From NCBI GenBank assembly GCA_036012755.1, contig DASCPX010000178.1, forward strand, positions 1 to 21,217: DNA of 21,217 nucleotides, given 5' to 3'. A program made the position numbers and the translations under genes. The stretch's first letter is position 1. Every line of letters begins with the position of its first letter. This document shows, piece after piece, positions 3,422 through 21,217 of this stretch. The DNA is from Myxococcota bacterium (GTDB lineage Bacteria; Myxococcota_A; UBA796; CAJQPC01). Below the pieces are notes generated by a model. That model worked only from the letters and a program-made list of their open reading frames with translations. It made no database searches and was not told where the DNA came from.

Positions 3422-3476
3422 GTGCGGAGTTTAGCTCCCGTCCGACCGACCGAGCGCACCGTGGCATCGTACGCAC
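3422..3476. promoter_or_regulatory. divergent promoter region with -10-like hexamers 6 nt before both GTG starts
   Basis: Minus strand: TAAACT (3433-3428)-N6-GTG 3421. Plus strand: TGG-CATCGT (3465-3470)-N6-GTG 3477. Confidence 0.5.
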
Positions 3477-4550
3477 GTGCTCCTCCTCGTCATCCTCAGC
3501 TGCGGCCGCGTCGGCGAGGCTCCGGACGTGCTCTGCCCCGACGGCTGGCGTCGTCCGCCCGGGGAGTGCCCGGAGCCCGAGCCCGTCGACAGCGAGGACT
3601 CCGCCGAGCCCTGCGAGATCGGGATCCTGAGGCTGGACCCGGATGAAGGAGAGGAGCACTACCGGCGCTCGCCGGTCCGCGCGATCCTGGATGGGGAGCC
3701 GGACGCCGCGCAGATCCGCGTCGAGGGCGCAGAGGGAGAGAGCGTTCGCGATGGCCCCAGGGTCACCTGGACGCCGAGCGAGCCGCTGGAGTTCGACACG
3801 AGCTTCGATGCCGTGGTCGAGCACACCTGCGGCAAGCACGAGTGGAGCTTCCGCACCGGCGCGCTCGGCGAGCCCCGCACCGAGGAGATCGTAGGCCGGA
3901 CCTACGTCTTCGACGCCGAGAGCGCGGAGGTGATCGTGCCCGAGGGGAGCGCGCTCGAGCCTTACCTCGACCGCTTCGTCTTCGTACAGGTCCTCGAGCA
4001 CGACGGCGAGTCCCTGACCCTGCTCATCGCCCATTCCGAGCTGGACGACGCGAGCCAGCAGTATCTCTGCAACCCGACGCTCCAGGTGGACGCGGACTTC
4101 GAGGACGATCCCTGGTTCCACGTGCCACGGCAGCGCGCAGGACTCGGACCGCTGATCTTCGAGGAGCTGGAGATCAGCGGCTCCTTCAGCGCCGACGCGT
4201 CCCAGCTCGGGGGTCTGGCGGTGGACGCCGTGGTGGACACTCGCGAGCTGGCCTTCCTCGTGGGCGAAGAGGAGGGACAAGACGCGATCTGCAAGCTCGT
4301 CGCTGGCGGCGGGATCGAGTGCATGGCCTGCTCCGACGGCGAGGAGCTCTGCATGGAGTTGGTCACCGAGGGCGGCTCCGCGAGCGCCGTGGAGCTGGAT
4401 CTGTTCCCCATCGAGACCTGTGACGACAGCTGCACCGAGCAGGAGTGCGATGGCTGCGGCTGCTCCTCGAAGCGGCGAGGCGGTGCGTGGCTCCTCGGCC
4501 TGCTTTCCGTGCTGCTGCTGGGCCGCCGCGTGGCAGACTCCGCGCCATGA
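3477..4550 (+). CDS. lipoprotein with Ig-like domain, Cys-rich linker and C-terminal MYXO-CTERM-like sorting signal
   Basis: Begins MLLLVILSC. VTWTPSEPLEFDTSF...WSFRTG resembles a bacterial Ig-like (Big_5-type) domain. The tail GCGCSS...AWLLGLLSVLLLGRR fits the GCxC-linker-TM-Arg pattern of MYXO-CTERM. Confidence 0.8.
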   Translation: MLLLVILSCGRVGEAPDVLCPDGWRRPPGECPEPEPVDSEDSAEPCEIGILRLDPDEGEEHYRRSPVRAILDGEPDAAQIRVEGAEGESVRDGPRVTWTPSEPLEFDTSFDAVVEHTCGKHEWSFRTGALGEPRTEEIVGRTYVFDAESAEVIVPEGSALEPYLDRFVFVQVLEHDGESLTLLIAHSELDDASQQYLCNPTLQVDADFEDDPWFHVPRQRAGLGPLIFEELEISGSFSADASQLGGLAVDAVVDTRELAFLVGEEEGQDAICKLVAGGGIECMACSDGEELCMELVTEGGSASAVELDLFPIETCDDSCTEQECDGCGCSSKRRGGAWLLGLLSVLLLGRRVADSAP

Positions 4551-4846
4551 GACTCAGCCTCCTCGTCATCGCCGCTCTGTCCTTGACCGCCTGCGAGATG
4601 GAGGAGATCGGGACGGGCTCCGGCAGCATCAACGTCCGCAACGCCGACGACGGGACCGTCGACGTGCTCATCGCCGACTCGAAGGACTGCTTCGCCGGAC
4701 TCCGCGGCAGCGTGAACTCCAAGAGCACCCGGATGTTCTCTGTGGGGGAGCAGAGCTACCTCTGCGTCAACGAGACCAAGCCGGCGTTCCCGGTGAACAG
4801 CGGCGGGAGCTACGTCATCGAGGGCGGCGCGCTGCGCCCGGAGTAG
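4547..4846 (+). CDS. small lipoprotein (99 aa), unknown function
   Basis: ATGA overlap with the upstream stop. Canonical signal MRLSLLVIAALSLTAC. Confidence 0.8.
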   Translation: MRLSLLVIAALSLTACEMEEIGTGSGSINVRNADDGTVDVLIADSKDCFAGLRGSVNSKSTRMFSVGEQSYLCVNETKPAFPVNSGGSYVIEGGALRPE

Positions 4847-6086
4847 GCCTCCGGAGCACCAGGACGAAGAAGCGACCAGGCAGGGGGCCCGGCCCTTCGT
4901 CCCGAAGGCTGACGTCGACGAGCCCCTCTACGGCTTCTGGCAGTGGCACGGTCGCAGAGGTCCAGGCCCTCGCTGGCAGGTCGGGCCAGCGGGCCCTGAG
5001 AGCCGTCCAGCTTCCGCGGTGGAGCCAACGGGCAGACATCTCCAGGCCCAGGGCGTCGATGACGCGCTCCACGTCTGCCTCCACGCCGCAGTCCTCGGCC
5101 ACCGCCAGGCAGGCGGCGAAGTCGATGCTGACCTCTGGGTGGTCGAGCTGCTCGGTCTCCTCGGGATCGATGTCGAGGCCGCCGAACTCGGACAGCCACG
5201 CGACGCCCCCGGGTCGTAGGACCCGAGCGACCTCGCGGACGCAGGCGAAGGCCCCCACGTTGACGAGGCGGCCGTCGCGGCGCTGGGCGGGCAGATCGGC
5301 GAGGACCTCGTTGACGACGACGGCGTCGAAGTGGGACTGGGGGAAGGGCAGGGCGGTCGCGTCTCCGAGCACGCCCCGGCTCTGCGGAGCCATGGCGGCC
5401 TGGGCCTCGAGGAGGGCGGCGGAGCGATCGAGCCTCGTGTGCTCCCGAGCACGCAGGTCCCGGCTCACACTTCCGAGCCCGCCGCCGATCTCGAGCAGGC
5501 GCTCTCGAGGGCCCAGCCAGTCGCTCAGGGCCTGGCCCCAGGTTCGCCCCGAGAGCGCCGGGTGGGGATCGCTGAAGACATGGGCCAGGGTGGTCTCGGC
5601 TCGGTCGAAGCGGGTCTCGGCGTCGTCGATGCGCTCGTGGAAGTCCCCGAGCGAGGTCGCGCCCTCGGTCCACATCTCCGGAGAGCGAGCCCCGGGTGGC
5701 CGCGGCTCGGCGCAGCGCCGCCACAGGGATGGATCCCCCGCCCGCCAGCGCTGTGGTCGTAGCTGGACCGCCTGCAGGTCGTAGGAGGTCCACTCGGGTG
5801 GAATCCCGCCGAGTTCGCGGAGGGTGCGCCGCCCGTCGATGCGGCGCCAGAGCTCGATCTCCGCGCTCGAGACGGGCACCTCCCGGTAGGTGAAGCCTCC
5901 GGAGGTCAAAGTGGCCGGGACCCACAGAGAGCCCGACTCCGGCAAGAGCAGCACCAATCGGGAGCGGGCGGGGACCCAGTCCTCGTCTACCTCGGCGAAG
6001 GTCCTCTCGATCATCGGAGCGGGGGCGTCCGCGCGCACGAAGCGCCCGGTCTCCGGGTTGAAGAGCTTGCCATGCAGCCGCAGCAC
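4815..6086 (-). CDS. class I SAM-dependent methyltransferase with N-terminal RRE/PqqD-like segment
   Basis: Motif I LLEIGGGLG, GDATALPFPQSHFDAVV, EVARVLRPGG. N-terminal ELWRRIDGRRTLREL. Confidence 0.85.
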   Translation of the reverse strand: MLRLHGKLFNPETGRFVRADAPAPMIERTFAEVDEDWVPARSRLVLLLPESGSLWVPATLTSGGFTYREVPVSSAEIELWRRIDGRRTLRELGGIPPEWTSYDLQAVQLRPQRWRAGDPSLWRRCAEPRPPGARSPEMWTEGATSLGDFHERIDDAETRFDRAETTLAHVFSDPHPALSGRTWGQALSDWLGPRERLLEIGGGLGSVSRDLRAREHTRLDRSAALLEAQAAMAPQSRGVLGDATALPFPQSHFDAVVVNEVLADLPAQRRDGRLVNVGAFACVREVARVLRPGGVAWLSEFGGLDIDPEETEQLDHPEVSIDFAACLAVAEDCGVEADVERVIDALGLEMSARWLHRGSWTALRARWPDLPARAWTSATVPLPEAVEGLVDVSLRDEGPGPLPGRFFVLVLRRPTPGAARRPR

Positions 6087-6095
6087 GGCCCGATG

Positions 6096-7605
6096 CTACG
6101 TGGGCCAGTCCGCGCACATGTCGACGCTCGTGGTCGCGGCCGAGTTCCTCATCCGGATCCAGAGGCGGTACTGGCCGGCGTCGCCGGTGTAGGAGATGGT
6201 CTCGGTCGAGGTCCCCGTCGTGTTGCCCTTGTCGACCTTCTCCCAGTAGCTGCCGTTGTAGGTGTAGAGGAACATGTCGAGGTCCGCCGCGTCGTCGCCG
6301 TAGAGCTCGAAGCTGTGGGTTCCGGACGAGGTGGTCGTGTAGCCCTGCGGGCCCGGGTAGATGCGGTTGGCGACCCCGTTGGTGCGGGGCAGCTCCGCGG
6401 TGAGCGCGTGGTCGGTGCAGACGCTCGCCGCGTCGCCGAGCCCTACATTCGAGAAGGCGTCCTGGGTGGCGGCGTACTGGGACGAGTCGGCCCCGTGGAG
6501 ATCCTGGGCTGCGTCGAGGAAGGCGAGCCGGGCGTCCTCGAAGTCGGAGTTGGACGACATGTACTTCTTGAGCGAGCGGAAGGCGATCTGGCCGGCGTCG
6601 TCGGCGCCCATGCCGCTCACGGTCTCGCTCGGGTAGTCCACGTGGTCGCCGCCTTCGCTCATCAAGTAGAAGGCGTGGGTGATGATCCCGCCGTTGATGT
6701 GGACGCCGCCGTAGTCGGAGCTGCCCGTGTAGAGGTCGTTCATGTGGGAGCGCGACATGCCGTCCGCGCTCGGGTCGTCCAGGAAGCGCACGCCGTCGCC
6801 GCTGACGACGACGTCCTCGCCCATGACCCACACGTCTGCCGAGTCGCCGTCGGCGTAGCGCTCGGACATGGCTCCGAGGATGTCCGCGTAGGCCTCGTCG
6901 AGGGCGCCGGACTGGTTCGCGTAGGTGAGTCCACCGACGTGAGGTGGTCGTCTCCAGCATGTCGTATGTGCCGAACTGGCGCTGCGGGTCCTCCAGGTAG
7001 AAGACGCCCGAGTCCTTCGTCGACTTGATCTCGACGGTCCCACTGTAGTTGGACGTGCCCGTGCCCTTGGCCGTCTTGAGGTTGTCGTAGCGCAGGAGCT
7101 CCTCGCCGCTGTGAGCGTCCACGTAGACCCGCGGCATCGCTGGCGTGGCGAGCTGGTAGAGCTGCACCTCCCAGGCGAGGTGGTCCTCGCCAGCCGAGCG
7201 GAGGACCACGAGCCGCAGCTGGGGCGGATGGGTCTGGGGCTCCCGATCGCTGGCGATGTCGACGGCTTCGTCGCGGTCCAGGGCTGGCAGGGGGGAGACC
7301 GAGATGGCCGGCACGAGGTAGTCGCTCATGCCGACGAGCTCGCCCCGGGGAGCGAGGTGGACGATGAGCTCGCCCCCGACCACCGGCAGGCCGGCGTAGG
7401 TCTGCTGCAGCCGCAAGGTCCCGAGGTCCAGCTCGTCGAGGTCGAAGCGCCGGACGACGAGGTCATGCTCGTCGATGCCCAGGCCCTGGAGGGCGACATC
7501 GAGGCGCGCGCCGGCCAGCGCGAGCTCTACCTGCTGCTCCTCGTCGAGCTCCCACCAGACCGACTCGTCCTCGACCTGCGCGCACGCCAGGACAGCAAAC
7601 AACAT
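6096..7605 (-). pseudogene. M4 (thermolysin-like) metalloprotease lipoprotein, FTP-PepSY-M4-PPC, disrupted by internal deletion plus frameshift
   Basis: The 5' frame has FTP (RLQQTYAGLPVVGGEL), PepSY (YVDAHSGE) and the mature start up to TYDMLETTTS. Near 6940-6945 the frame changes to HVGGLTYANQSGALDEAYADILG...GGVHINGGI and a PPC-like tail (ADLDMFLY). HExxH is absent. Confidence 0.85.
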
Positions 7606-7694
7606 GAGCACCTTCCCGTTTCCAACCGCGACCAGGGTCTGTCGGCTCGCCGGATTGCCGGGTTTCGAGAGGGTTTGGGTGATACCTGGACGTC

Positions 7695-8750
7695 GTGCCC
7701 AAGCCGATCCCTCCTCCTCCTCCGCAAGCCTCAGCGGACGAGACCGGCCGGGCGGTCCGCCTGGCTCGCTGGCTCTATGCCCTGGTGATCGGTGCCTTCC
7801 TGCTCCTGGCTGCTGGCTACTCACCGCAGGGCTTCCCGGTCGACTACGGGCGCGAGGCGAGCCTGTCCTGGACCCTCTGGAAGCTCGAGGGACTGGACGT
7901 CGACACCCTCCGCGCGGAGGGGGACGGTCGCATCGTCTGGCTGCTCGGGGCCAGCGTCGTGCGCGAGTCCTTCGACGAGGACGTCATCAACGCTGCGCTG
8001 CCGGAGGGGGGCCCGCGGGTCGTGAAGATCGGCTTCGACCGCGGCGCCAGCGGGCTTGCATACGGAATGGCCCGACGGCTTCCCCTGCAGCCCGGCGATC
8101 TCGTCGTGCACAACGTCAGCGCCAACAACTTCCGCAGGGACTGGATCGCCTTCGTGGAGCTGCCCCACTGGTGGCTGACGACGCTCTACACCCCCGGCGA
8201 GTTCTGGGCGATCGACGAGCTCTCCGTCCAGGACAAGATCGAGGGCTCGGTGAACTACGCTCCGCGACGCTTCTGGAGCAACCACGACGAGCACCAGGAG
8301 GGCCTCTTCCTGTGGGCTCGATCCCCGCTCTCCGGTGCGCCCGAGGCTCGAGGACAGAGCGTGCACCTGCGCTTCCACACGGGTGAGACGCGAAAGGGCT
8401 TCCACAAGTGGCGGGTGAGCGAGCGGGCCCGCCGACAGCGCGTGCACAGCCTCGAGCGGTGGGACGCCTCGCCCGAGCAGTTCAACGCCCGCGGTCTCAC
8501 CCTGCTCCGCGAGCGCTGCGAGGTCCGCGGCGCAGAGCTCCTCCTCATCACCATCCCACCCAGCGACGCGATGAGCGAGCTGCTCGTCGAGCCTGGCGTG
8601 GAGCCGCTCTGGACCGAGCTGATGGCCGAGGCTGGCATCGAAGCCTGGCCCAAGCCCCCCGAGGACGACTACCACGACTTCATCCACCCCAACTTCAGGG
8701 GGAGGGCGATGCTCAGCGAGCACATGGTGGAGTGGCTCGACGGCCGCTGA
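7695..8750 (+). CDS. membrane-anchored SGNH/GDSL-like (DltD/AlgJ-like) protein
   Basis: N-terminal TM helix, block-I-like VWLLGAS, C-terminal DxxH motif (YHDFIHPNFRG). Confidence 0.65.
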   Translation: MPKPIPPPPPQASADETGRAVRLARWLYALVIGAFLLLAAGYSPQGFPVDYGREASLSWTLWKLEGLDVDTLRAEGDGRIVWLLGASVVRESFDEDVINAALPEGGPRVVKIGFDRGASGLAYGMARRLPLQPGDLVVHNVSANNFRRDWIAFVELPHWWLTTLYTPGEFWAIDELSVQDKIEGSVNYAPRRFWSNHDEHQEGLFLWARSPLSGAPEARGQSVHLRFHTGETRKGFHKWRVSERARRQRVHSLERWDASPEQFNARGLTLLRERCEVRGAELLLITIPPSDAMSELLVEPGVEPLWTELMAEAGIEAWPKPPEDDYHDFIHPNFRGRAMLSEHMVEWLDGR

Positions 8751-8789
8751 GGGCTATCGCTCAGAGCGTCCTGGTCCGAAGAGCAAGGC

Positions 8790-10106
8790 ATGAAGCCAGT
8801 CGCGAAAGAGGGCGGCGGTCTGTCGACCCTCCTGATCCTGACCCACGCGCCTGTCGCGGTCTTCACGGTCGGATGCCTCCTCGCGAGCGTGGGCGTGATC
8901 GCGGTCTTCGACCAGCAGATCGCCGAGCTCGTCGCCGGGGTCGCCCAGGACGCCAACGAGGTCGAGGCGCTCCAACTCTTCGCGGTCAGGGCAAAGGCCG
9001 CCTGGGGGGTCTTCCTCTCGCTGTTGCTCCTGAGCGTGCTCATCGGCACCCTGGTGACGATCTGGTCCCACCGGCGTCTCGTCGCCGGCTTCGAGCGCCA
9101 ACTCGAAGAGCGTGACGCGACGCTGAGGGGTGACCACGAGCGCCAGCTGTTCAGGACCCGCCTGGCCCAGGCGATGTCGATGGCCGACCGCGAGTCAGAG
9201 GCGCTGGCTGTCGCCGAGCGCGCCCTGGCGCTGGCTGCCCCGGAGATGCCAGCCGAGCTCCTGTTGGCGGACTCCAGCCAGGCCCACCTTCGGCGGGAGA
9301 TCGTCGGGGCCAGTGGCCCAGCCGCCTGCGAGGTCCAGAGTCCAGAGGCCTGCCATGCGGTTCGACGAGGATCCGCCTTGGTCTTCGAAGACAGCCGGAA
9401 CCTCGACGCTTGCACCCACCTGGGCCATCGGGGGCCCTGCAGCGCGGCTTGCATCCCGGTCAGCGTGATGGGGCGGAGCGTGGGCGTGCTGCACGTGGTC
9501 TCGGAGGCGGAGGTGCCGCCGGGGCTGGAGACAGTGCGGCAGCTCACCTTCCTGGCCGACCAGTTCGGCACGCGGGTCGGCATGGTCCGGGCCCTGGCGA
9601 CCAGCCAGCTCCAGGCCGACACGGACGCGCTCACGGGCCTGCTCAACCGCCGAAGCCTGGAGGCCCGCGTGCGACCTGCCCTGGCGACTGGGACCTCGGC
9701 GGCGGTGGCGATGTGCGACCTCGATCACTTCAAGCATCTCAACGACACCCACGGCCACGCCACAGGCGATCGCGCCCTGCGCGTGTTCTCCGGTGTCCTC
9801 CGGGCGGAGCTCCCCGATGGCGCGGTCATCGGGCGTCATGGCGGCGAGGAGTTCGTGGTCGTGCTCCCCGGAGTCCACCTCGACGAGGCCTTCGGCCACC
9901 TCGAGGACGTGCGCGAGGCCCTCGCGGAGGCCATCGGGCGGTCCGGGTTGCCAGTCTTCACGTGCAGCTTCGGACTCACCCACACCTCCCGCCAGGGCCA
10001 CCGGCTGGAGACGCTGATAGAGGGCGCTGACGCGCTGCTCTACCGGGCCAAGGAAGCCGGTCGGGACCGGATCGAGATCGAGCGCAGGCTGGCCGCGCTG
10101 GGCTGA
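8790..10106 (+). CDS. membrane-bound GAF-GGDEF diguanylate cyclase
   Basis: Two TM helices, a GAF-like region (CIPVSVMGRSVGVLH), DALTGLLNRR, DLDHFKHLNDTHGH and GRHGGEEF. Confidence 0.93.
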   Translation: MKPVAKEGGGLSTLLILTHAPVAVFTVGCLLASVGVIAVFDQQIAELVAGVAQDANEVEALQLFAVRAKAAWGVFLSLLLLSVLIGTLVTIWSHRRLVAGFERQLEERDATLRGDHERQLFRTRLAQAMSMADRESEALAVAERALALAAPEMPAELLLADSSQAHLRREIVGASGPAACEVQSPEACHAVRRGSALVFEDSRNLDACTHLGHRGPCSAACIPVSVMGRSVGVLHVVSEAEVPPGLETVRQLTFLADQFGTRVGMVRALATSQLQADTDALTGLLNRRSLEARVRPALATGTSAAVAMCDLDHFKHLNDTHGHATGDRALRVFSGVLRAELPDGAVIGRHGGEEFVVVLPGVHLDEAFGHLEDVREALAEAIGRSGLPVFTCSFGLTHTSRQGHRLETLIEGADALLYRAKEAGRDRIEIERRLAALG

Positions 10107-10133
10107 GCTTGCCTGTGGATGGTAGAAAGCTCT

Positions 10134-11033
10134 GTGCTCGCCGTCCTGCTCCTCTCCTGCGTCGACTATGGGGTGACGCGCAACACGGAGAGGGAGAGCT
10201 GGACCCAGCCAGCCCGTGAAGGTGGCGTGGACATTCTCTGGGTAGTGGACGACAGCCAGTCCATGTACGAGGAGCAGCAGCAGCTCGCCGAGCACAGCGG
10301 CAATTTCATCGAGCTCCTGCTGAACATCCCGGTGGACTTCCGCCTCGCCGTCACGACGACCGACATGGAGGAGGGGGGAGGTGCGCTGGTCGGTGAGATC
10401 CTCACCGGTGAGACCGAGGAGCTGCGGGAGGCGTTCATCGCCCAGGCGACGGACCTCGACAACGGGAGCCGGGACGAGCGCGGCTTCGACGCTGCGATCT
10501 TCGCCTCCGATCCGAGCACCTCGGACTTCGCACGGACGGCCTCGGACCTGGAGGTCGTCTTCTTCACCGACGAGGACGACCAGTCCGACATGGACGTCGA
10601 GACCTTCGCCGAAGAGCTGCGGTCGCAGCGCAACGGCGGTGTCTTCGTCAACGGCATCATCGGCGATCTGCCAGAGGGCTGCGCCTCCCTCATCGCCGCC
10701 GCGGACCCGGGCTTCAAGTACGTCGATGCCCAGTCGGAGACAGGCGGCACGCGGGAGTCGATCTGCTCGGACGACTACGGCGCCATGCTCGAGCGCGTCG
10801 CCTACCACGTGCTGGGCCTGAACAACGTCTATGCCCTGGCCGCGGTCCCGGAGCCTGCCTCCCTCGAGGTCCGGGTCGACAACGTGATCATCCCGGAGCG
10901 CGATCGACATGGCTGGAGCTACGACCCTGGCGAGAACGTCGTGATCCTCGATGGGTTCGGCGTGCCGAGGCCCGGGTCGGACGTCGTGATCCGGTACTTC
11001 GAGTGGTTCGGGGCCGACGAGGACACAGGATGA
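10134..11033 (+). CDS. vWA-like (MIDAS) lipoprotein
   Basis: VDILWVVDDSQSM (DxSxS) and VVFFTDEDD. Lipobox LLSC. GTG 10134 preferred over ATG 10119 because the intervening codons GTA GAA AGC TCT are atypical for this genome. Confidence 0.75.
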   Translation: MLAVLLLSCVDYGVTRNTERESWTQPAREGGVDILWVVDDSQSMYEEQQQLAEHSGNFIELLLNIPVDFRLAVTTTDMEEGGGALVGEILTGETEELREAFIAQATDLDNGSRDERGFDAAIFASDPSTSDFARTASDLEVVFFTDEDDQSDMDVETFAEELRSQRNGGVFVNGIIGDLPEGCASLIAAADPGFKYVDAQSETGGTRESICSDDYGAMLERVAYHVLGLNNVYALAAVPEPASLEVRVDNVIIPERDRHGWSYDPGENVVILDGFGVPRPGSDVVIRYFEWFGADEDTG

Positions 11034-12673
11034 TCCTGCTGGCGATCCTCGGCTGTGACGGAGAGGGGCTGTTCCAGGACAACGGCGGCGGCGACGAGAT
11101 CATGTCGATCCGCGTCGAACCGCCAGAGGTCCGCGTCGAGACCGGCGAAGAGGCCCCAGCAGAGGTCGAGTTCGTCGCGGTCGCCACCTTCGGAGACGGC
11201 AGCGAGCGCGAGCTCGACCTCGTCGCCTGGGAGAGCTCGAACCACTCCGCCGGGACCATCGACGACGACGGCGACTTCATCTCCAGGACCACCAACGGAG
11301 GCGTCGCGACGATCACGGCGAACCACGTCGGGATCGAGGGCACGGCCACCGTCACGGTCGTCTACGTCGACTCCTGGATCAACGGAGACCTGCCCGGCAT
11401 CGCAGAGGCCTTCGACGAGGCCACTCCGGCGAGCGGAGGTCCGGACATCACCTACCCCTACGACGAGCTCCGGGTGCCGCGGAACCTCGAGGGCCTGCGG
11501 TTCTTCTGGGAGGGGGCCGACGACGTCGTCTCCCGCCTGCGTCTCCAGAGCGTCATCACCGACATGTCCGTGTACACCGAGGGCTCCGACTGGACGCTCG
11601 ACTCCGACATCTGGGAGCTCATCGCCGCCAGCAACCGCGAGGGGCATGTCACGGTGAACGTGACCTCGGGCAGCTGGAACGGGAGCTCGCTCACGGACGT
11701 GAAGGTCGGTGGCGACCTCTCCATGACCGTCAACCGCTTCGACGCCCGCGGGAGCGTCGTCTACTGGTCCACCGCGGACACCGCGATCATGCGCATCCCC
11801 TTCGGCGAGCTGGAGGCCTCGATCTTCTTCGCGCCGGAGAGCGGAAACTGCGTCGGCTGCCACGTGCTCTCCAACGAGCGCGACCGCATGGTCGTGACCC
11901 ATGACGGCCCCAGCGGACGCTTCCAGGTCATCAACGTCGCCGACCCGGACGACCCGACCGAGGCCGTGGGCACGGACGACGATCGTCGGGCCACCTTCAA
12001 AGCCCTTCACCCGGAGGGCTCCTACATGATCGCCAGCGACGCTGGCCAGCTCCACCTCTACCAGCTCTGGGACGGACTGAAGGTCCGGACCTATGACGAC
12101 GACTACATCACCCAGCCGGACTTCCACCCCGATGGGGACGAGCTCGTCGCCGTGCGTGTCGTGAGCGGCCACAAGGACGAGTTCACCTTCCAGCAAGGCG
12201 AGATCGTCAAGGCCAGCTTCGACCTGGAGACAGGCGACCTCGGATCCTGGGAGGTCCTCGTCGCCAGCGATGGGACCAACAACCGCTACTACCCGAGCTA
12301 CTCCCCCGACGGTGCCTGGATCGCGTTCAACAAGGCCCAGGGCAGCGCCTACGCGAACATCCAGGCGCGGCTGGCCCTGGTCAAGTCCGACGGCAGCATC
12401 GTCATCGACCTCGACAACGCCAACGGCGAAGGCGCTCTCCAGAACAGCTGGCCCCGCTGGGGACCGCTGCCAGACGACGACGTGCTCTGGCTGGCCTACT
12501 CCTCTCGGCGCGCCTACCCTGGCCAGCTCCCCTCCACGGCCCCTCAGCTCTGGGTGACCGGCATCGACGAGAACCTCGCCGAGCAGGGGCTGGACCCGAG
12601 CGCAGCACCCTTCTGGCTCCCTGCTCAGGACACGCAGTCCGACAACCACGTGCCCATCTGGTGGGAGAAGTGA
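11030..12673 (+). CDS. lipoprotein with Ig-like domain and TolB/PD40-type beta-propeller, single CxxCH
   Basis: ATGA overlap, starts MILLAILGC. Big_2-like VAWESSN...ATITA, PD40-like repeats (QPDFHPDG, YPSYSPDGAWIAF, WPRWGP) and CVGCH. Confidence 0.8.
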   Translation: MILLAILGCDGEGLFQDNGGGDEIMSIRVEPPEVRVETGEEAPAEVEFVAVATFGDGSERELDLVAWESSNHSAGTIDDDGDFISRTTNGGVATITANHVGIEGTATVTVVYVDSWINGDLPGIAEAFDEATPASGGPDITYPYDELRVPRNLEGLRFFWEGADDVVSRLRLQSVITDMSVYTEGSDWTLDSDIWELIAASNREGHVTVNVTSGSWNGSSLTDVKVGGDLSMTVNRFDARGSVVYWSTADTAIMRIPFGELEASIFFAPESGNCVGCHVLSNERDRMVVTHDGPSGRFQVINVADPDDPTEAVGTDDDRRATFKALHPEGSYMIASDAGQLHLYQLWDGLKVRTYDDDYITQPDFHPDGDELVAVRVVSGHKDEFTFQQGEIVKASFDLETGDLGSWEVLVASDGTNNRYYPSYSPDGAWIAFNKAQGSAYANIQARLALVKSDGSIVIDLDNANGEGALQNSWPRWGPLPDDDVLWLAYSSRRAYPGQLPSTAPQLWVTGIDENLAEQGLDPSAAPFWLPAQDTQSDNHVPIWWEK

Positions 12674-14946
12674 GCCTCCTGGTCCTCGCCTGCAGCTCCT
12701 CGTCGGTGAAGCTCGAGGTGCTCGGCGAGGACGGAGCGCCGCTCTCCGGCGCCATCGCCATCCGACCCGACGCCTCCATCGAGTCGGACAGCACCGGGCG
12801 CATCGCCCTCTGGCTCGACCGCCCTGAGCTCTGGCTCGTCGAAGCTCCCGGCCACATCGCCGAGCCCGTCATCGTGGGACCGGACGACCACTTCACCCGA
12901 ATCGAGGTGCGGCTGTTGCGCGAGGAGGGCCGCCACGTCCTGCACTTCGGCGGCGACGTCATGCTGGGCCGGCGCTACGAGCAGCCCAGCTCGGGGGTGG
13001 CGCTCATAGATCCCGCTGACCGCGATGCCTGCTCACGGCGCATGGTCTCCGACCTCGCGCCCCTGTTTGCCGCGGCCGACATCTCGATGGTCAACCTGGA
13101 GAGCGTGCTCGGCGATCTCGGCGACGCCGACGCCTACCCGGCGAAGCGCTGGCTGATCCAGACCCATCCGGACAGCCTGGCCGCCTTCGAGGAGCTGGGG
13201 GTCGATCTCGTCGGGCTCGCGAACAACCACCAGCGGGACTGGCTCGACGATGGCGTCGGCTCCACCATCGACGCCCTCGATGCCCGTGGCCTCCCCTGGC
13301 TCGGCGCTGGCGCTGACATCGAGGAGTCCCTCCAGACTCGCGTCCTCGTCCTCGACGATCTGCGCGTCGGGGTCGTGGCCTTCACCAGCGTGGACGGGGC
13401 CTACGTCAACGAGACCCTCCCGACGGCCGATGACGACCTGCCCTCGTCGATCGGCGAGAACGAGGCCTGGAAGTGGGAGGAGCGTTCCTGGGGGACCGCC
13501 GACATCCCAGAGGAGCAACGCTTGCCTGGCGATGCCTGGCGGTTGTTCATCTCACTCGAGGACGAGCTCGACGACCCGGCGGAGGCATGGGCGTCGCTCC
13601 GAGCGGTCTACCCCGAGCTCCAGGACTGGGTCGCCCACCGAGGGCACGGCGGCGCCGCTGCCTGGGACCAGGACACGGCGGAGCTCCTCATCGCCGAGCT
13701 CGACAGCCAGGTCGACCTCGTCGTGGCGCAGCTCCACATGGGCTACCAGTTCTCGAACGCGCCCTCGGCCGGCGTGCGGGAAGCAGCGAAGGCCGCGATC
13801 GACGCAGGCGCGGACATCGTGGTCGGTCACCACCCCCACGTGCTCCAGGGCATCGAGGTCAGCGACGGCAAGCTGATGGCATGGAGCCTCGGCAACCTCG
13901 CCTTCGACCAGGACTTCCTGGCGACCTGGCGCAGCGCGGTCCTTCGCACGGTGTACTCGGATGACGGCGAGCTCGTGCAGGCCCGACTGGTACCCCTCGT
14001 CATGGACGACTACCGGCCGGTGCCCGTCCACGGCGTCGCGGCTCGGGACATCCTCCGGGAGGCATACGAGCGCGGAGTCTCCCAGACGACCGCTCGGCGT
14101 GGCGAGGACGACCGGGTCAGGGCGATGGTCGAGGCGGTGGAGAGCGAGCCGGTCGGATTCGTCCTCGAGCACGGCACGGTGCGCATCGTCGTGAAGCCCC
14201 GGACCACGGACGCCTCGCTGAGCGTTCCGCGGAAGGACACAGCAGAGCTGCCCCAGGACGGACTGGTCGCCGTGACGGGAGAGGGGGTGCTGGTCGGTCG
14301 CGACCTGTGGTCCTTCGGCTCCTTCGAGGACGAGGACGCCGACACCCGCGACGACATCCTGGGCTGGTCCCTGAGCCCGAGCGCGGAGATCGTCCACAGC
14401 GGTGACCAGCAGCGACACGTGCTGGAGCTCAGGAGAGAGCCGCTCAACTCCGCCAGCGTCGTCGCCTCGTTCACCGCGCGGGCGGTGATGTTCGACCATC
14501 GGGTCTGGACGGGGTCCGACGGCGTCGGGCTCGACGGTGAAGCCAGCTGGTCGGTGCGCTTCCTCGCACGCGGAAAGGGAGACCGGAACGAGGGCCTCGT
14601 CAACGTCACCCTCGTCCACTACGACGACACGGACCCCACCATCGATCCCTGGACGGTCACGCTGGCCGAGCTGGAGCTGCCGTTCTCCATCGGCGGTGTC
14701 GGCTGGCAGGAGGTCCTCGTGGAGATCCCGCCAGAGGCGCTGGTGGCGGTCGACGGGCTCAGCCCGAACGCGGCCCGCGTGCAGCTGGAGCTGCCCCCTC
14801 CACCCTTCAGGAGCAGCCTCCTCCAGATCGACGAGGTGGAGTTCATCGAGTGGCGGCCAGCGCGGGGCGACCTCGGCGCCTATCGCCGGGTACGAAGCGA
14901 AGACGGCAAGCGCCACACAGCAGACCTGGAGTTGTTGCCATGGTGA
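12670..14946 (+). CDS. CapA (PGA_cap) family metallo-hydrolase lipoprotein with C-terminal beta-sandwich extension
   Basis: GTGA overlap, starts MSLLVLAC. Motifs GGDVMLGR, VNLES, LANNH, LHMG, GHHPHVLQ and SLGNLAFDQ. Confidence 0.88.
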   Translation: MSLLVLACSSSSVKLEVLGEDGAPLSGAIAIRPDASIESDSTGRIALWLDRPELWLVEAPGHIAEPVIVGPDDHFTRIEVRLLREEGRHVLHFGGDVMLGRRYEQPSSGVALIDPADRDACSRRMVSDLAPLFAAADISMVNLESVLGDLGDADAYPAKRWLIQTHPDSLAAFEELGVDLVGLANNHQRDWLDDGVGSTIDALDARGLPWLGAGADIEESLQTRVLVLDDLRVGVVAFTSVDGAYVNETLPTADDDLPSSIGENEAWKWEERSWGTADIPEEQRLPGDAWRLFISLEDELDDPAEAWASLRAVYPELQDWVAHRGHGGAAAWDQDTAELLIAELDSQVDLVVAQLHMGYQFSNAPSAGVREAAKAAIDAGADIVVGHHPHVLQGIEVSDGKLMAWSLGNLAFDQDFLATWRSAVLRTVYSDDGELVQARLVPLVMDDYRPVPVHGVAARDILREAYERGVSQTTARRGEDDRVRAMVEAVESEPVGFVLEHGTVRIVVKPRTTDASLSVPRKDTAELPQDGLVAVTGEGVLVGRDLWSFGSFEDEDADTRDDILGWSLSPSAEIVHSGDQQRHVLELRREPLNSASVVASFTARAVMFDHRVWTGSDGVGLDGEASWSVRFLARGKGDRNEGLVNVTLVHYDDTDPTIDPWTVTLAELELPFSIGGVGWQEVLVEIPPEALVAVDGLSPNAARVQLELPPPPFRSSLLQIDEVEFIEWRPARGDLGAYRRVRSEDGKRHTADLELLPW

Positions 14947-15485
14947 TCCTCTTGTTGGCATGCAGCGGGACGGAGGGGACCGCCGCCGGCGGCTCGGTGC
15001 TCGTCGCGGACTACGCGATGCTCGGAGACGGCACCTCGTGGACCTACCGCGACGACGCCCTCGGGCCAGAGTCCGACAGCCCGGCCGAGGAGGAGCTGCT
15101 CCACGCGCGACACGTCGGCGATGGGGTCGTGGAGTTTCGCAGGGGGCTCCGGTGGGCGGACGCCGTCGAAGAGGGCAAGCTCGTGTGGTCGGAGGCTGAC
15201 GGGCTGACGCTCGTCGAGTGGGACCTGGGAGAGGCCCAGGGATCCGGCGAGATCTTCATGTCCGCCGAGACCCCCGAGCCGAAAGCGATGACCTTCAGCG
15301 GGAAGTACACCTGCACGACGTTCATGGATGCGCCCGTCGAGACCTACTACGGCACCTTCGAGCTGGCGCTGGTCTTCGACTGCGACGGAGGCGGCATGGG
15401 CGGCACCTACGCCTTCGCCTACGGCTGGGGGCTCGTCCAGGTCGACGCCGGCGGCATCCTGCTAGATCTGGTCGGTCCCTGGTAG
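14940..15485 (+). CDS. small beta-rich lipoprotein, unknown function
   Basis: GGAG SD at 14928-14931, starts MVILLLAC, overlaps the upstream stop, strong GC3 bias. Confidence 0.75.
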   Translation: MVILLLACSGTEGTAAGGSVLVADYAMLGDGTSWTYRDDALGPESDSPAEEELLHARHVGDGVVEFRRGLRWADAVEEGKLVWSEADGLTLVEWDLGEAQGSGEIFMSAETPEPKAMTFSGKYTCTTFMDAPVETYYGTFELALVFDCDGGGMGGTYAFAYGWGLVQVDAGGILLDLVGPW

Positions 15486-17492: not shown

Positions 17493-17504
17493 GAACAAAG
17501 GCTA
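17493..17504 (-). promoter_or_regulatory. -10-like hexamer 6 nt upstream of nadE ATG (candidate leaderless promoter)
   Basis: TAGCCT-TTGTTC-ATG with no SD. Confidence 0.5.
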
Positions 17505-17551
17505 TCGCGTCCGCGGTGCGCTGAGTCCTCGTGGGTGGCGACCAGAGCATG

Positions 17552-17595
17552 GTGGGCGGTGCTCACACGTGGATTCACGCACGAGCACCGCCCAC
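17552..17595 (-). terminator. strong stem-loop 12 nt after the MATE stop (terminator-, stabiliser- or REP-like)
   Basis: GTGGGCGGTGCTC / GAGCACCGCCCAC 13-bp perfect arms plus an inner CGTG/CACG stem. No U-tract on the minus strand. Confidence 0.55.
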
Positions 17596-17607
17596 GGTTC
17601 TGTCTTT

Positions 17608-18975
17608 TCAGGCAGCCCTGCGGATGTCCTTCTTCTTTGCCTTTGCGTCGGCGTCGAGCCAGCGACCGCTGAGGATCCGCCAGCTCGCGACGATGGCGAG
17701 GAAGATGATGTCCGCCGTGAGCCCGAGCCAGGCGCCGACGGCGCCCAGGCCCATCGGGATTGCCAACCAGATGCCCAGCGGCAGCTTCACGAACCAGGCG
17801 GAGAAGACCCCGACCAGCATGGTGAAGCGCGTATCGCCTGCACCCTTCAGCGCGTTGAGCGAGGTCATCGCCACCGCGTCGAAGATCTGGAAGATCGCCG
17901 CGACGACCAGCAGGTTCCGGCCGATGTCGACCACCTCCTGTTCGAGCCCGAAGGGCCACAAGAGCCCGCCAGGAGCGACCAGGAACAGCACACCGCAAGC
18001 GGCCATGATGCCCACGCCGAGCCTGGTGGCGCTGGTCCAGGCCTCTCGGGCGGCCCCGGGTCTCCGGGCACCGAGCGACTGCCCGACCAGCACACCGCCA
18101 GCCTCGCCGACCGCATGCCCTGGCAGGAAGCTCACGCTGATGATGCGGAGCACCACCACGTGGGCCGCCAGCTCGGCCTCGCCGACCCGCGCGAGCAGGC
18201 TGACGAAGATGCCGAAGGCGAGGACATCCAGGACGTACCAGACCGCCAGCGGACTCCCGAGGCGGAAGACCTCTGAGAGCTCGAACGCCCTTGGCCAGGA
18301 GAAGGCACCTGCGAGCCCGCGGCTCCTCCAGAAGAGGAAGGCGAGCCCGACCGCCAGCGCGATGTTCGTCGCGTGAGCGGCTCCTGCGATGCCCAGCGCC
18401 GGCACGGGGCCGAGACCGAAGATCAGCAGGGGGTCGATGGCGATGTTCAGCAGGTTGGCGACGAGCGTCGCGACCATCGGCGTGCGGGTGTCGCCCCGGC
18501 CCTGGAACCACGCGGTGAGCGCGAAGGTGCCGAAGACAAGCGGCGAGCCCAGGATGCGGATGGAGAACCACTCGCTCCCGAGCGACGTCGCGCCTTCGCT
18601 CGCGCCCATCAGGGGGAAGAGCCAGGGCCCGACCCAGAAGGTCGAGGCGACCACAGCACCGAGCGCGGCGGCCCACCACAGCGCCTGCCACCAGAAGTGG
18701 CGGGCACCCTCGTGGTCCTCTGCCCCGGTACGGTGCGACACGGCGACGTTCACGCCACCGAGCAGCCCCATGCCGAGGGCGATGCCGGCCCATGCGGCTA
18801 CACCGGCGATGCCGATGGCCGCGAGGTACTGGGTCCCGAGGCGACCGACGAACAGCGTGTCCGCCGTCGTCATCGCTGTCCGAGACAGCATCGACACCAT
18901 GATCGGCCACGCGAGACCAAAGACGGTGCTGACACCTATGCGTGCGGGCAGGGCGCCCGCTCTTCGCGCCGACAT
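17608..18975 (-). CDS. MATE family efflux transporter
   Basis: About 12 hydrophobic segments, LAWPI...ADTLFVGRLG, QGRGDTRTPM, LKGAGDTRFTM. SD GGAGG. Confidence 0.95.
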   Translation of the reverse strand: MSARRAGALPARIGVSTVFGLAWPIMVSMLSRTAMTTADTLFVGRLGTQYLAAIGIAGVAAWAGIALGMGLLGGVNVAVSHRTGAEDHEGARHFWWQALWWAAALGAVVASTFWVGPWLFPLMGASEGATSLGSEWFSIRILGSPLVFGTFALTAWFQGRGDTRTPMVATLVANLLNIAIDPLLIFGLGPVPALGIAGAAHATNIALAVGLAFLFWRSRGLAGAFSWPRAFELSEVFRLGSPLAVWYVLDVLAFGIFVSLLARVGEAELAAHVVVLRIISVSFLPGHAVGEAGGVLVGQSLGARRPGAAREAWTSATRLGVGIMAACGVLFLVAPGGLLWPFGLEQEVVDIGRNLLVVAAIFQIFDAVAMTSLNALKGAGDTRFTMLVGVFSAWFVKLPLGIWLAIPMGLGAVGAWLGLTADIIFLAIVASWRILSGRWLDADAKAKKKDIRRAA

Positions 18976-18977
18976 GG

Positions 18978-19096
18978 CGCACCTCCAAAGCGCGCGAGCA
19001 GACTCGCGGCTCGGTGAGTCCCCCTCGCGGGGGCTTCGGTTTCAACTGATCCAGGGGACCAGCTGACTCAGTCGGCGACCCCGTCCTGGAGGCACG
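18978..19096 (-). promoter_or_regulatory. structured 5' leader of MATE gene (anti-SD/SD pairing plus hairpins)
   Basis: CGTGCCTCCAGG (19096-19085) can pair with TTTGGAGGTGCG (18989-18978). Internal hairpins at 19042-19066 and 19020-19033 (CCCCC-GCGA-GGGGG). Confidence 0.6.
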
Positions 19097-19118
19097 AGGT
19101 CGTTGCGACAGCGGTCAT
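19068..19118 (-). CDS. putative leader peptide MTAVATTSCLQDGVAD (16 aa)
   Basis: ATG at 19118 to TGA at 19068-19070, ending 92 nt before the MATE ATG. It contains the anti-SD and has no SD of its own. Confidence 0.5.
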   Translation of the reverse strand: MTAVATTSCLQDGVAD

Positions 19119-19202
19119 GACAATGCTGGACATCGGGTCCTCGTGGTGGAATCAGGGCCCAAGTGTTCTGTGCACCCCAAAGCTCTCGACCGTGACGGGT
19201 CT

Positions 19203-20243
19203 GTGACAGGCTCCATTCTCCTGGTCGGAAACCCCACGGCACAGTCCGGAAAGGCAGCGGAGCGCATCAGGCACTCGCTGGAGGCGATGCGCTCGCGGGG
19301 GTGGTCGGCCCACGTGATGGAGACCCTCCCCTCGGGGCGAACGGTGGGCGCCTTGAGGGAACGCCTCGACGAGGACGAGGGCATCGAGGTCGTCGTCTAC
19401 CTTGGCGGGGACGGCACCTTCGCGGAGGTGGCCAAGGGCATCCTCGCTGCGAAGCGCAAGAGACTCCTCGGCATGCTGCCGAGCGGCACGGCCAACGACC
19501 AGGGCAAGTCCTTCGGCGTCAGCGCGGCGAGGGGGGCCCTGGCTCGCAACCTGGATGTGATCGCGGCCCGCCACACGACGCTGCTCGACGTGGGCAAGGT
19601 CGGTCGCATCGGCCTCGACGGTCGCGTCGACGACCTGAACCACGTCTTCCACAGCGTCGGCTGGGGCATGCAGTCCGACATCCTCCAGCAGCGCAACCAG
19701 GATCGGGAGGCGGTCAAGGGCTTCCCGCTGCTGTCGATGCTCTACCGGGACCAGCTGGTCTACGCCGGGGCCGCCTTCGGCAAGCTCATGGAGTCCTACG
19801 TCGAGCCGATCAAGTTCGACGCGCACGTGCGCGTGGACGGCAACGAGCACCACCTCCAGGGGCTCACCGACCTGGTGATCAACGCCACCAGCGTCTACGG
19901 CGGCATGTGGGTGCTCGACCGCGAAGCCGAGCCCGACGACGGTCGCTTCGAGCTCGTCCCGGTCCACGGCCGCAGGGAGTGGGCCAGCAAGGCCCTGCGA
20001 GACCTCGCCCAGGTCCCGCTCTGGGAGGAACACCTCGCTGCCTTCGGCGTGAAGCACCGGGACGGCTTCTCCGGCGGAGACTTCGACGTGGAGCTGGTGC
20101 GCATCGGCGAGGACGAGGTCAGCTCGCAGGTCGACGGCGAGGAGTGGGTCAGCGGCAGTCGCTTCCGGCTCTCGGTCCTTCGCCAGGAGCTCCCGATCAT
20201 CACCCCGGCGGACTGGGTGCCGCCGTGGAGACCTCCCGGGTAG
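19203..20243 (+). CDS. diacylglycerol kinase family lipid kinase (YegS/BmrU-like)
   Basis: ILLVGNPTAQSG, LGGDGT, LPSGTAND and QVDGE. GTG 19203 places the first strand at the N-terminus. Confidence 0.9.
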   Translation: MTGSILLVGNPTAQSGKAAERIRHSLEAMRSRGWSAHVMETLPSGRTVGALRERLDEDEGIEVVVYLGGDGTFAEVAKGILAAKRKRLLGMLPSGTANDQGKSFGVSAARGALARNLDVIAARHTTLLDVGKVGRIGLDGRVDDLNHVFHSVGWGMQSDILQQRNQDREAVKGFPLLSMLYRDQLVYAGAAFGKLMESYVEPIKFDAHVRVDGNEHHLQGLTDLVINATSVYGGMWVLDREAEPDDGRFELVPVHGRREWASKALRDLAQVPLWEEHLAAFGVKHRDGFSGGDFDVELVRIGEDEVSSQVDGEEWVSGSRFRLSVLRQELPIITPADWVPPWRPPG

Positions 20244-20288
20244 GAGCGCCCTGGACAGCGATCGACATCCCGGTGTGCGGAAGCGACG

Positions 20289-20525
20289 TCAGGCGGCGAG
20301 TGGTGCGAGCTCACCCTCCGCGAGTGGCGAGAGGCCGAGCTGAGTCAGGAGTTCGTCGAGGTGACTGGCCGTGACGATCTGCGGGGAGGTGATCTCGATG
20401 CCGACCACAGTGCCACCGTCCTCGTAGTCAACGATCAAGCCTCCTGCACGTCGCTCGGAGCGCACTACGGGCGTCGCGCGCCTCGCCACGTGAAGGTATG
20501 CAGCAAGCGGCAGTCGGCTACCCAT
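20289..20525 (-). CDS. DUF2283-like small protein, probably N-terminally truncated
   Basis: LAAYLHV...GLIVDYEDGGTVVGIEI matches the AY...vDy...G.vvGIEI pattern of DUF2283. The start is uncertain. Confidence 0.65.
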   Translation of the reverse strand: MGSRLPLAAYLHVARRATPVVRSERRAGGLIVDYEDGGTVVGIEITSPQIVTASHLDELLTQLGLSPLAEGELAPLAA

Positions 20526-20559
20526 CGGTCGGGGACCTGGTCCCGCAACACCAGCATCG

Positions 20560-20928
20560 TGCGCCTTCCTGGCGGTTTGGCAGGGCACCCGCAGCCTCCG
20601 CATCACAGCGGTCGCAGGCGTCGACGTCGAGGCCTGCATCGCGAGGGGCCGAGGGGTTGGCTGGATTGTCCTTGCATCCCGACTCTGGCCTGGACTGAGA
20701 CTGGGGCAGCTGAGGGGCTCAGCGACACCGCCAGGAGGGCACTATGCGGACCCGGCCCAGTACCGGGGCATCTCCTGGATCGACTTCCCCTACACCTACA
20801 GCGAGAGGTCCCTGGATGACGTGTGGACGAGCCCGGACAGCGGCGATGCCTGGGAGAAGATCTGCGCCGAGGTCCCCGGAACGCCGCCTTCGCCCTGCTT
20901 CAACACCCGCACCTTCGAGGTGAGGTGA
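20560..20928 (+). pseudogene. start-less gene remnant (3' end of an unknown gene)
   Basis: The frame is open from 20494 to TGA 20926-20928 with no usable start. The segment HYADPAQYRGISWIDFPYTY...FNTRTFEVR has strong GC3 bias and its stop overlaps the next ATG (TGATG). Confidence 0.55.
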
Positions 20929-21217
20929 TGCTGCTCGTCGTGCTCGTCGGCTGCGGGACCGGTGACCCCTGCTCCTGGGCTCATGGGAGTTGGGAGCAGG
21001 AGGCTGTGGTCGTGGCCGGCGAGGACGTCGGCGGAGACAGCGGGCAGTCGCTGGTCTTGTCACCAGACGCCTTCGAGTACGTCGCCACCGCCGAGCCCTG
21101 GTCATACGTGCCAGAGGACCCCGAGTGTTCCTCGCTGCGGGCGTCCGTAGGGGATCGGTCCTACCGCATCGAGAAGACTGGCGAGGAGCTGACCCTACGC
21201 CTGGGCACGGTCCGCGC
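20928..21217 (+). CDS. lipoprotein of unknown function (partial, runs off window)
   Basis: GAGGTGAGG SD-like sequence, TGATG coupling, MLLVVLVGCGTGDPC..., open to the window end. Not in the ORF track. Confidence 0.75.
   Translation, partial: MLLVVLVGCGTGDPCSWAHGSWEQEAVVVAGEDVGGDSGQSLVLSPDAFEYVATAEPWSYVPEDPECSSLRASVGDRSYRIEKTGEELTLRLGTVR

Follow-up and report, generated by a model that had tools for sequence, protein, structure and literature searches.

The 21,217-nucleotide stretch of DNA analyzed here, referred to as the window in the following, is an entire contig (C178) from the genome of an uncultured marine myxobacterium. Seven of its genes begin with N-termini in which a start residue and a few apolar residues lead directly to a lipobox cysteine, and these N-termini are probably genuine minimal signal peptides of the Sec-type lipoprotein class, i.e. 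substrates of signal peptidase (SPase) II. Judged from sequence, such a signal would consist of Met, four to seven very Leu-rich residues and [Ala/Gly/Ser]-Cys, with the basic n-region lost entirely. The trait is genome-wide, comprising roughly 450–650 lipoproteins, and among the genomes searched it is confined to one uncultured order of Myxococcota. An earlier note on this DNA had proposed, from the letters of the window, that the lineage uses a minimal lipoprotein targeting signal. This proposal stands: the minimal uncharged lipobox is the main lipoprotein signal of the lineage, it extends across the genome, its cysteine is conserved in orthologs, and it occurs in one order only.

The source genome (6.73 Mb, 68% G+C, 250 contigs, 96% complete) is denoted G000. 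The genomes compared with it are labeled Gnnn, and genera and families within the Myxococcota order of the host are labeled g and f, respectively; G000 belongs to f1. Its closest relatives by NadE are exclusively metagenome-assembled genomes, labeled Myxococcota or misfiled under other phyla. Likewise, the DNA data sets that hold the window are marine metagenomes, and no RNA data set is found among the listed holders of its sequence. Contigs from four further metagenome runs (three studies) cover the window, and in these contigs the seven signal-coding stretches are free of listed base differences and indels.

Seven short N-termini in one contig

All seven signals were read in the sequence at the coordinates at which the earlier note had placed them. 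On the forward strand, MLLLVILSC (3477–3503; GTG start, Cys codon at 3501–3503) opens the gene 3477–4550, whose product carries a MYXO-CTERM-like C-terminal tail; (V)LAVLLLSC (10134–10160; GTG start) opens the gene of a MIDAS/CglD-like lipoprotein (10134–11033); MILLAILGC (11030–11056; ATG start) that of a β-propeller (PD40/TolB-like) lipoprotein (11030–12673); (M)SLLVLAC (12670–12693; GTG start) that of a PGA_cap/CapA-type protein (12670–14946); MVILLLAC (14940–14963; ATG start) the gene 14940–15485; and MLLVVLVGC (20928–20954; ATG start) the gene 20928–21217, which is cut by the contig end. On the reverse strand, MLFAVLAC (7582–7605; ATG start) opens the broken gene of a thermolysin-type (M4) protease (6096–7605). 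As claimed, these signals are devoid of Lys and Arg, and Asp and Glu are equally absent before the Cys in all seven. Each ends in a lipobox-like x-x-[AGS]-C, and all seven fit the lipobox [LVI]-[ASTVI]-[GAS]-C, while none, in its short form, has the canonical basic n-region, i.e. at least one Lys or Arg ahead of the hydrophobic h-region.

Three of the seven genes (3477, 10134 and 12670) start with GTG instead of ATG, and for these three no extension yields a basic signal. The constraint that the earlier note described at 3477 is real: an in-frame TAG lies at 3432, and the 14 codons between it and the start include no ATG, GTG, TTG or CTG. At 10134, the furthest possible start, ATG 10119, gives MVESSVLAVLLLSC, 14 residues without Lys or Arg. 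The start at 12670 overlaps the preceding stop in GTGA; its furthest alternative, GTG 12661, gives 11 residues without Lys or Arg, and other starts are absent across 191 upstream codons. At 7605, a GTG lies two codons upstream of the ATG. The start at 11030 overlaps the stop of the preceding gene in ATGA, and here the earlier note had cautioned that a GTG at 11003 would give a canonical basic signal. This codon exists, but the signal it would produce is not canonical, as too few uncharged residues follow its last Arg to fit the standard pattern; moreover, orthologs with a stop just upstream favor the short start. The start at 14940 overlaps the preceding stop in ATGGTGA, and at 20928 the ATG is immediately preceded by GAGGTGAGGTG, with an alternative start possible at GTG 20823.

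As a standard pattern we used one modeled on G+LPPv3, which requires [RK], 6–20 uncharged residues and the four lipobox positions, as given in the accessible part of PMC13068155, with the {DERK} term, printed there in garbled form, restored. None of ten window variants passes it, including the long options of 11030, 14940 and 20928. The signal MRLSLLVIAALSLTAC (4547–4594, forward strand), which belongs to the operon of the 3477 gene and has Arg at residue 2 and Cys at residue 16, passes. It is thus the ordinary Sec/SPase II signal that the earlier note took it for and serves as a positive control.

Two local features of the window may be added. The divergent genes 2054–3421 (reverse strand) and 3477–4550 (forward strand) start only 55 bases apart (3422–3476), and no Shine–Dalgarno (SD)-like motif precedes GTG 3477; one or both transcripts from this intergenic stretch may be leaderless. 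At 20683, inside the open reading frame (ORF) 20361–20819 upstream of the 20928 gene, two bases are absent in one contig of run X8, which probably reflects strain variation or, at a depth of 2.7, an error in the contig.

A signal class across the genome and the order

Gene calling in G000 combined a codon-usage score with the longest-ORF start rule, the rule least favorable to short signals, and yielded 4895 genes. The genome-wide histogram of first-Cys positions, which the earlier note had suggested as a check, has a sharp peak at residues 7–12, comprising 814 genes (133, 226, 153, 124, 91 and 87 at successive positions). Flanking positions predict about 362 genes in this interval, leaving an excess of about 452, and the first positions of Trp, His, Met, Tyr, Asn and Lys in the same gene set display no comparable peak. 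At the nucleotide level, the pattern ATG(NTN)5-GSN-TGY occurs 48 times in G000, compared with 1 occurrence of its counterpart with a TCN serine codon, 5 with Gly for Cys and 0 of the reversed pattern.

We define the short class by a first Cys at residue 6–13 without any Asp, Glu, Lys, Arg, His, Asn or Gln before it; it includes 499 genes, with residue 8 as the most frequent Cys position. Aligned on the Cys, these genes yield a logo with four Leu positions ahead of [Ala/Gly/Ser]-Cys (Leu 57% at −3 and 60% at −2; Ala 66%, Gly 14% and Ser 12% at −1), and the stretch after the Cys abounds in Pro, Asp and Glu. When all lipobox N-termini of G000 are sorted by their possible starts, 446 are short-only, meaning that they have no possible start more than 12 codons from the Cys, 105 are long-only with Lys or Arg, and 212 are ambiguous. 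None of the 446 short-only genes passes the G+LPPv3-like pattern, and among the 105 long-only ones are clearly canonical signals, such as MKRVLIATAALGVLVAC. The two groups differ in the composition of their h-regions at positions −7 to −2, with 49% Leu, 9% Val, 8% Ile and 8% Ala in the short signals and 36% Leu, 21% Ala, 13% Val and 7% Gly in the canonical ones. Since the short h-regions are far more hydrophobic than canonical ones, two signal classes coexist in G000. The 18 residues after the Cys have a net charge of −2.7 in the short class; we considered this acidity as a trait specific to short signals and rejected it, given that the canonical class is equally acidic.

Short signals are not restricted to lipoproteins. 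In G000, 605 genes open with six residues that are almost all Leu, Ile, Val, Phe, Met, Trp or Ala, of which 223 have no early Cys, and many of these 223 read as SPase I substrates with 9–12 uncharged residues, for instance MLLIATAFA followed by QDPP or MLLLLSLAMA followed by DDTD. That signals of the SPase I type are short, too, points to Sec targeting and gating, not to Lgt or LspA. Among individual envelope proteins, a CpoB-like protein has the short uncharged start MMLLLLSAC, and BamD (C149:39926–40537, reverse strand) has no lipobox Cys and instead shows a short, uncharged SPase I-like signal, MFALLLTLSLPAVAA followed by KNQ. A lipoprotein of the twin-arginine translocation (Tat) type on C193 retains its long twin-arginine signal; the short class, being without Arg, has no twin-arginine n-region.

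The proteins behind the short signals in the window have domains of exported type, namely the M4 protease with FTP and PepSY propeptide, PGA_cap, PD40 and the adhesin-like MIDAS/CglD domain. The C-terminus of the 3477–4550 product (4430–4550) resembles a MYXO-CTERM sorting tail, running from a Cys-rich through a hydrophobic to an Arg-rich segment, and weakly matches the tail of a myxosortase-dependent family (E 0.002). By a regular expression of our own, 85 proteins in G000 have MYXO-CTERM-like tails; the N-terminus is uncharged and hydrophobic in 31 of them if read from the longest-ORF start and in 23 if read from a downstream one, and a signal with Lys or Arg is possible in only about 7.

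For the distribution of the trait, we used the number of ATG(NTN)5-GSN-TGY matches per genome as a proxy. It reaches at least 20 in 35 of 154 genomes of the host's order. In f1, the high-trait genomes are those of the window's own genus, of g4, and G003 of g2 (27 matches), with 27–91 matches altogether; elsewhere, they comprise most of f7 (up to 114) and the genus g66 of f6 (59 and 81). The low-trait genomes, with 0–5 matches, include most of f2, f3 and f5 as well as several f1 genera; the reversed control pattern yields 0–1 across the genomes of the order. No more than 7 matches occur in any of 257 Myxococcota genomes outside the order, and most of these have 0–2; the 14 genomes of the same class among them have 0–3. 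A SecY tree of 61 genomes requires at least five changes to account for the high state, and well-supported branches force at least three of them.

Orthologs and start sites

An alignment of homologous N-termini, also suggested in the earlier note, shows that the lipobox Cys is retained for six of the seven window genes, with signals as short as 7 and as long as about 36 residues, in keeping with the trait level of the respective genome. Orthologs with the +1 Cys number 14 of 14 for 11030, 14 of 14 for 10134, 10 of 10 for 14940, 11 of 11 for the protease and 4 of 4 for the PGA_cap protein. For the 20928 fragment, no ortholog was found in the five nearest genomes.

Individual families illustrate the change in signal length. 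Within the window's genus, the orthologs of 3477 have short signals, MMILLLSC in G002 (TAA two codons upstream) and VLIAVLAC in G001 (TAG nine codons upstream), and the ortholog in genus g3 has the canonical MRFISLTVLALTAASC. Likewise, the M4 protease of the same-genus G001 is short (MSLLIVLASC), and the ten from lower-trait genomes have canonical signals of 18–24 residues with Lys or Arg. For 10134, a C-V-D/E-Y/T motif beginning with the Cys is conserved at 14 of 14 loci; near upstream stops fix the short signal in G005 (TAG three codons upstream), G029, G014, G018 and G008, and signals are canonical in G003, G028, G004 and G015. Stops 7–9 codons upstream leave 11030 orthologs short in G016 (MILYLLAC, seven codons), G004 (MILTLWALGAC) and G018 (MTPFVLLLAC); canonical forms exist in G028 and G024. 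The PGA_cap orthologs range from at most 13 residues without a basic one in G002 and MLPTLLLTAC in G003 to a canonical signal of 25 residues with Arg in G027. Lastly, the 14940 orthologs, which sit directly behind those of 11030, are canonical with Arg in g3, G028, G023, G018 and G024 and short in G003 and G029. An intermediate state with both starts available is seen in G016 (MARRCVYGLRMTLLLLVSC).

The same comparison revealed the context of these genes. A MIDAS/CglD-like protein (10134), a PD40 β-propeller (11030) and a small protein of 180 residues (14940) form a three-lipoprotein operon that is conserved across families, and in G000 the PGA_cap gene (12670–14946) is inserted between its second and third genes. 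The M4 protease gene is broken by an internal deletion and a frameshift: its frame changes after a segment ending in YDMLETTTS, and GGLTYANQSGALDEAY follows without the expected HExxH segment. At the break site, a contig from another run continues without gaps, and 11 of 11 orthologs are intact, with HExxH and the lipobox Cys.

These data bear on the most mundane explanation, namely that the starts are mis-called and that a true upstream start, canonical or not, adds a basic n-region and renders the signals ordinary. It draws on the in-frame upstream GTG codons at 7605, 11030, 14940 and 20928, and on 179 of the ambiguous cases genome-wide, whose longer option contains Lys or Arg. The 446 short-only lipobox genes leave little room for it, however, as does the Cys peak, which persists under the longest-ORF rule. 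Across the 499 short-class genes, the in-frame codons back to the preceding stop number at most five in 173 cases and at most ten in 241; the stop directly precedes the start in 17 and lies within two codons of it in 47, and 145 genes have no Lys or Arg anywhere between upstream stop and start. In the orthologs, stops occur 2–9 codons upstream, and the long options of 11030, 14940 and 20928 fail the standard pattern even so. Furthermore, SD-like motifs are appropriately spaced, at −18 to −4, in 52% of the 446 short genes compared with 25% of internal control sites. The logo of the bases upstream of short-signal starts peaks at −12 to −9 with T(−12), A(−11), G(−10) and G(−9), possibly an SD-like AGG that in many genes serves at the same time as an in-frame TAG stop. 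Finally, the same caller, applied to 400-kb samples, gives short-only versus long-only counts (the latter with Lys or Arg) of 1 versus 7 in G122, 5 versus 15 in G004, 27 versus 10 in G005 and 19 versus 1 in G000; these differences between genomes argue that the short class is not a product of the gene-calling method. The mis-calling of starts is thus largely refuted, and we regard it as highly improbable.

The export machinery and known systems

G000 encodes one SecA, one SecY, three SPase I, one Lnt above the cut-off, two LspA and five Lgt matches, and hence the complete set of Lgt, LspA and Lnt. SecB was not found with PF02556 in this 96% complete genome, an absence on which we place no weight. 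Part of the lipoprotein machinery is arranged in tandem, as lspA-lspA-lgt-lgt (C59:100000–102591). Both LspA copies retain the two Asp-containing catalytic motifs in an alignment to a solved LspA (6RYO); compared with the solved S. aureus enzyme, they have about 13 extra residues between these motifs. Copy numbers of LspA (0–3 across 154 genomes of the order) and of Lgt (1–6 across 98) are unrelated to the trait, and we rejected dedicated LspA or Lgt paralogs as its cause on these grounds. Lgt is present in three to six copies in almost all genomes of the order.

In SecY, we aligned 61 genomes of the order with 60 other Myxococcota, using E. coli numbering via chain 5abb_A. At the position equivalent to E. 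coli Ile187, all 61 genomes of the order have Ala or Ser. Of the 60 genomes outside, 58 have Ile, Met or Val there; the residue is Ile in all six genomes of the same class, and Ile in 46, Met in five and Val, Ser and Thr in one each of the 54 from other classes. The plug residue Phe67 and the ring residues Ile191, Ile278 and Ile408 are invariant throughout the alignment, and Ile82 and Ile86 vary only to Val (4/60 and 0/60 in the order; 5/60 and 14/60 outside). According to the accessible part of PMC8082313, the pore ring consists of six bulky isoleucines that seal the channel; in that of PMC2171872, Ile187 is a member of this ring, and prlA suppressors map to its positions 191, 278 and 408. 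These passages of the two sources also present prlA ring mutations as thought to ease channel opening. The Ile187-equivalent position is where a pore-ring residue has become smaller or polar in the manner of prlA alleles, and the substitution is a candidate for a prlA-like permissive change. The suggestion of unusual Sec, Lgt or LspA recognition in the earlier note thus divides: neither the copy numbers nor the conserved LspA motifs speak for Lgt or LspA, whereas SecY does contain an order-specific residue, though as a candidate only. For the alternative in the earlier note, a different route of export or lipidation, the analysis gave no support.

Other SecY sites were considered and rejected. 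The alignment positions q119, q216, q238 (E. coli G240), q304 and q370 separate high- from low-trait f1, and f7 shares some of them; the high-trait G145 lacks them, and the no-trait family f2 has them. The position equivalent to F286, which is associated with prlA4, is Ala, Val, Ile or Leu in 17 of 18 f7 genomes; it was discarded as a trait site, as a few zero-trait f3 and f5 genomes deviate there, too.

How might such signals work? The extreme hydrophobicity of the short h-region could compensate for the absent positive charge, and the strongly acidic early mature region could provide the charge asymmetry that orients the signal hairpin. Ala or Ser in the SecY ring might make the channel easier to open, as in prlA suppressors, so that shorter signals could evolve in several lineages. 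The lipobox would then be processed in the ordinary way by Lgt, LspA and Lnt. In a model of LspA substrate binding (described in the available portion of PMC9360617), the active sites of Lgt and LspA lie at the periplasmic face, so that a membrane-spanning helix would not be needed. We tentatively propose, as a possibility that is still doubtful, that the order has a natural prlA-like SecY with relaxed proofreading, and that SPase I and SPase II signals decayed independently at least three times to 7–10 uncharged residues. If so, signal-peptide architecture co-evolves with translocon gating, and the rule of a basic n-region and a membrane-spanning h-region reflects particular translocons rather than Sec export in general.

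Several observations weigh against the reading of these N-termini as minimal signals, or against its explanation through SecY. Upstream starts are possible at four of the seven window genes (7605, 11030, 14940 and 20928), and our gene caller is crude, with at least one spurious call in the window (ORF 7111–7788). The early mature region of the canonical class is as acidic (−2.66) as that of the short class. Hikita and Mizushima reportedly observed compensation by a longer hydrophobic stretch, and here the stretch is short. Ala or Ser at the Ile187-equivalent position also occurs in genomes of the order with almost no short signals (f2, f3 and f5), and G254 and G216, the genomes outside the order with Ser or Thr there, have 0 pattern matches; because such carriers exist, the change is at most permissive and not sufficient. 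Moreover, the link to SecY represents a single evolutionary event, one clade against the rest, and has accordingly small statistical weight. No further site in the SecY alignment was found to track the trait in all three high-trait lineages, and G145 (f6, 59 matches) lacks the substitutions common to high-trait f1 and f7.

The insufficiency of the ring change leaves some room for real signals that use another or an additional route, such as obligatory co-translational targeting by the signal recognition particle (SRP), YidC or an undescribed factor for Met-poly-Leu, rather than a relaxed SecY pore. The far greater hydrophobicity of the short h-regions and the coexistence of two classes would suit such a route. 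Yet no candidate factor was identified in a comparison that did not extend to SRP and YidC, and the single SecA and SecY are present and conserved; we consider it unlikely. A division of labor within the lipoprotein machinery, with LspA or Lgt paralogs specialized for short signals and canonical copies for long ones, would likewise fit two coexisting classes and find its enzymes in the tandem cluster and the five Lgt matches of G000. It is very unlikely, as the highest-trait genus, g45 (111–114 matches), has one LspA while low-trait f3 genomes have two to three, and as SPase I-type signals are short as well. Still harder to credit is the idea that these N-termini are not cleaved signals at all, but uncleaved anchors or a Cys motif for cytoplasmic modification. 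Eight residues are indeed too few to span a bilayer as a helix, but the lipobox logo matches the recognition motif of Lgt and LspA, the same Cys follows canonical SPase II signals in orthologs, and the proteins are of extracytoplasmic types.

The reading as minimal Sec signals has consequences beyond this lineage. The rules of a basic n-region and a gate-spanning h-region are treated as near-universal and are built into predictors, lipoprotein patterns and, indirectly, start calling; in this lineage, the predominant signal of an entire proteome violates two of the three signal-peptide rules. Much of its envelope and secreted proteome would escape standard patterns and probably standard predictors, and gene callers may add spurious Arg-rich N-terminal extensions. 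A graded trait that evolved repeatedly within one order is a natural experiment on the minimum information for Sec targeting, and the clade-specific pore-ring change makes the question concretely testable in E. coli. Very short, efficient signals would also help secretion engineering. Our search of a limited literature collection turned up no account of ultrashort, uncharged signal peptides occurring naturally in bacteria.

With canonical SPase II signals, exemplified by E. coli Lpp and captured by PROSITE PS51257 and G+LPP, the short signals share the lipobox, Leu at −3 and −2, the conserved +1 Cys, the Lgt, LspA and Lnt genes and mature proteins of envelope type. They differ in the missing basic n-region, in an h-region of only four to seven, much Leu-richer residues, and in the position of the Cys, which is residue 7–10 here and about residue 15–35 in canonical lipoprotein signals. 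A positively charged n-region is described as a defining part of the signal in the accessible part of PMC9360617. With E. coli prlA (secY) alleles, the common element is a changed pore-ring position. According to the available portion of PMC2171872, prlA ring alleles allow the export of proteins with defective signals, and position 187 is not among the prlA sites named there. Unlike these laboratory suppressors, the state seen here is natural, fixed and order-wide. Type IV prepilin (SPase III) leaders are also very short and N-terminal; they are charged and cut before the hydrophobic segment, whereas here the hydrophobic segment is itself the leader and ends in a lipobox. Finally, engineered minimal or idealized signals, with poly-Leu h-regions and charge-free n-regions, follow the same principle of trading hydrophobicity against n-region charge. 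The work of Hikita and Mizushima in 1992 and of Chou and Kendall in 1990 reportedly relied on in vitro or engineered E. coli constructs; in this lineage, the minimal form occurs naturally and is the predominant signal across an entire proteome.

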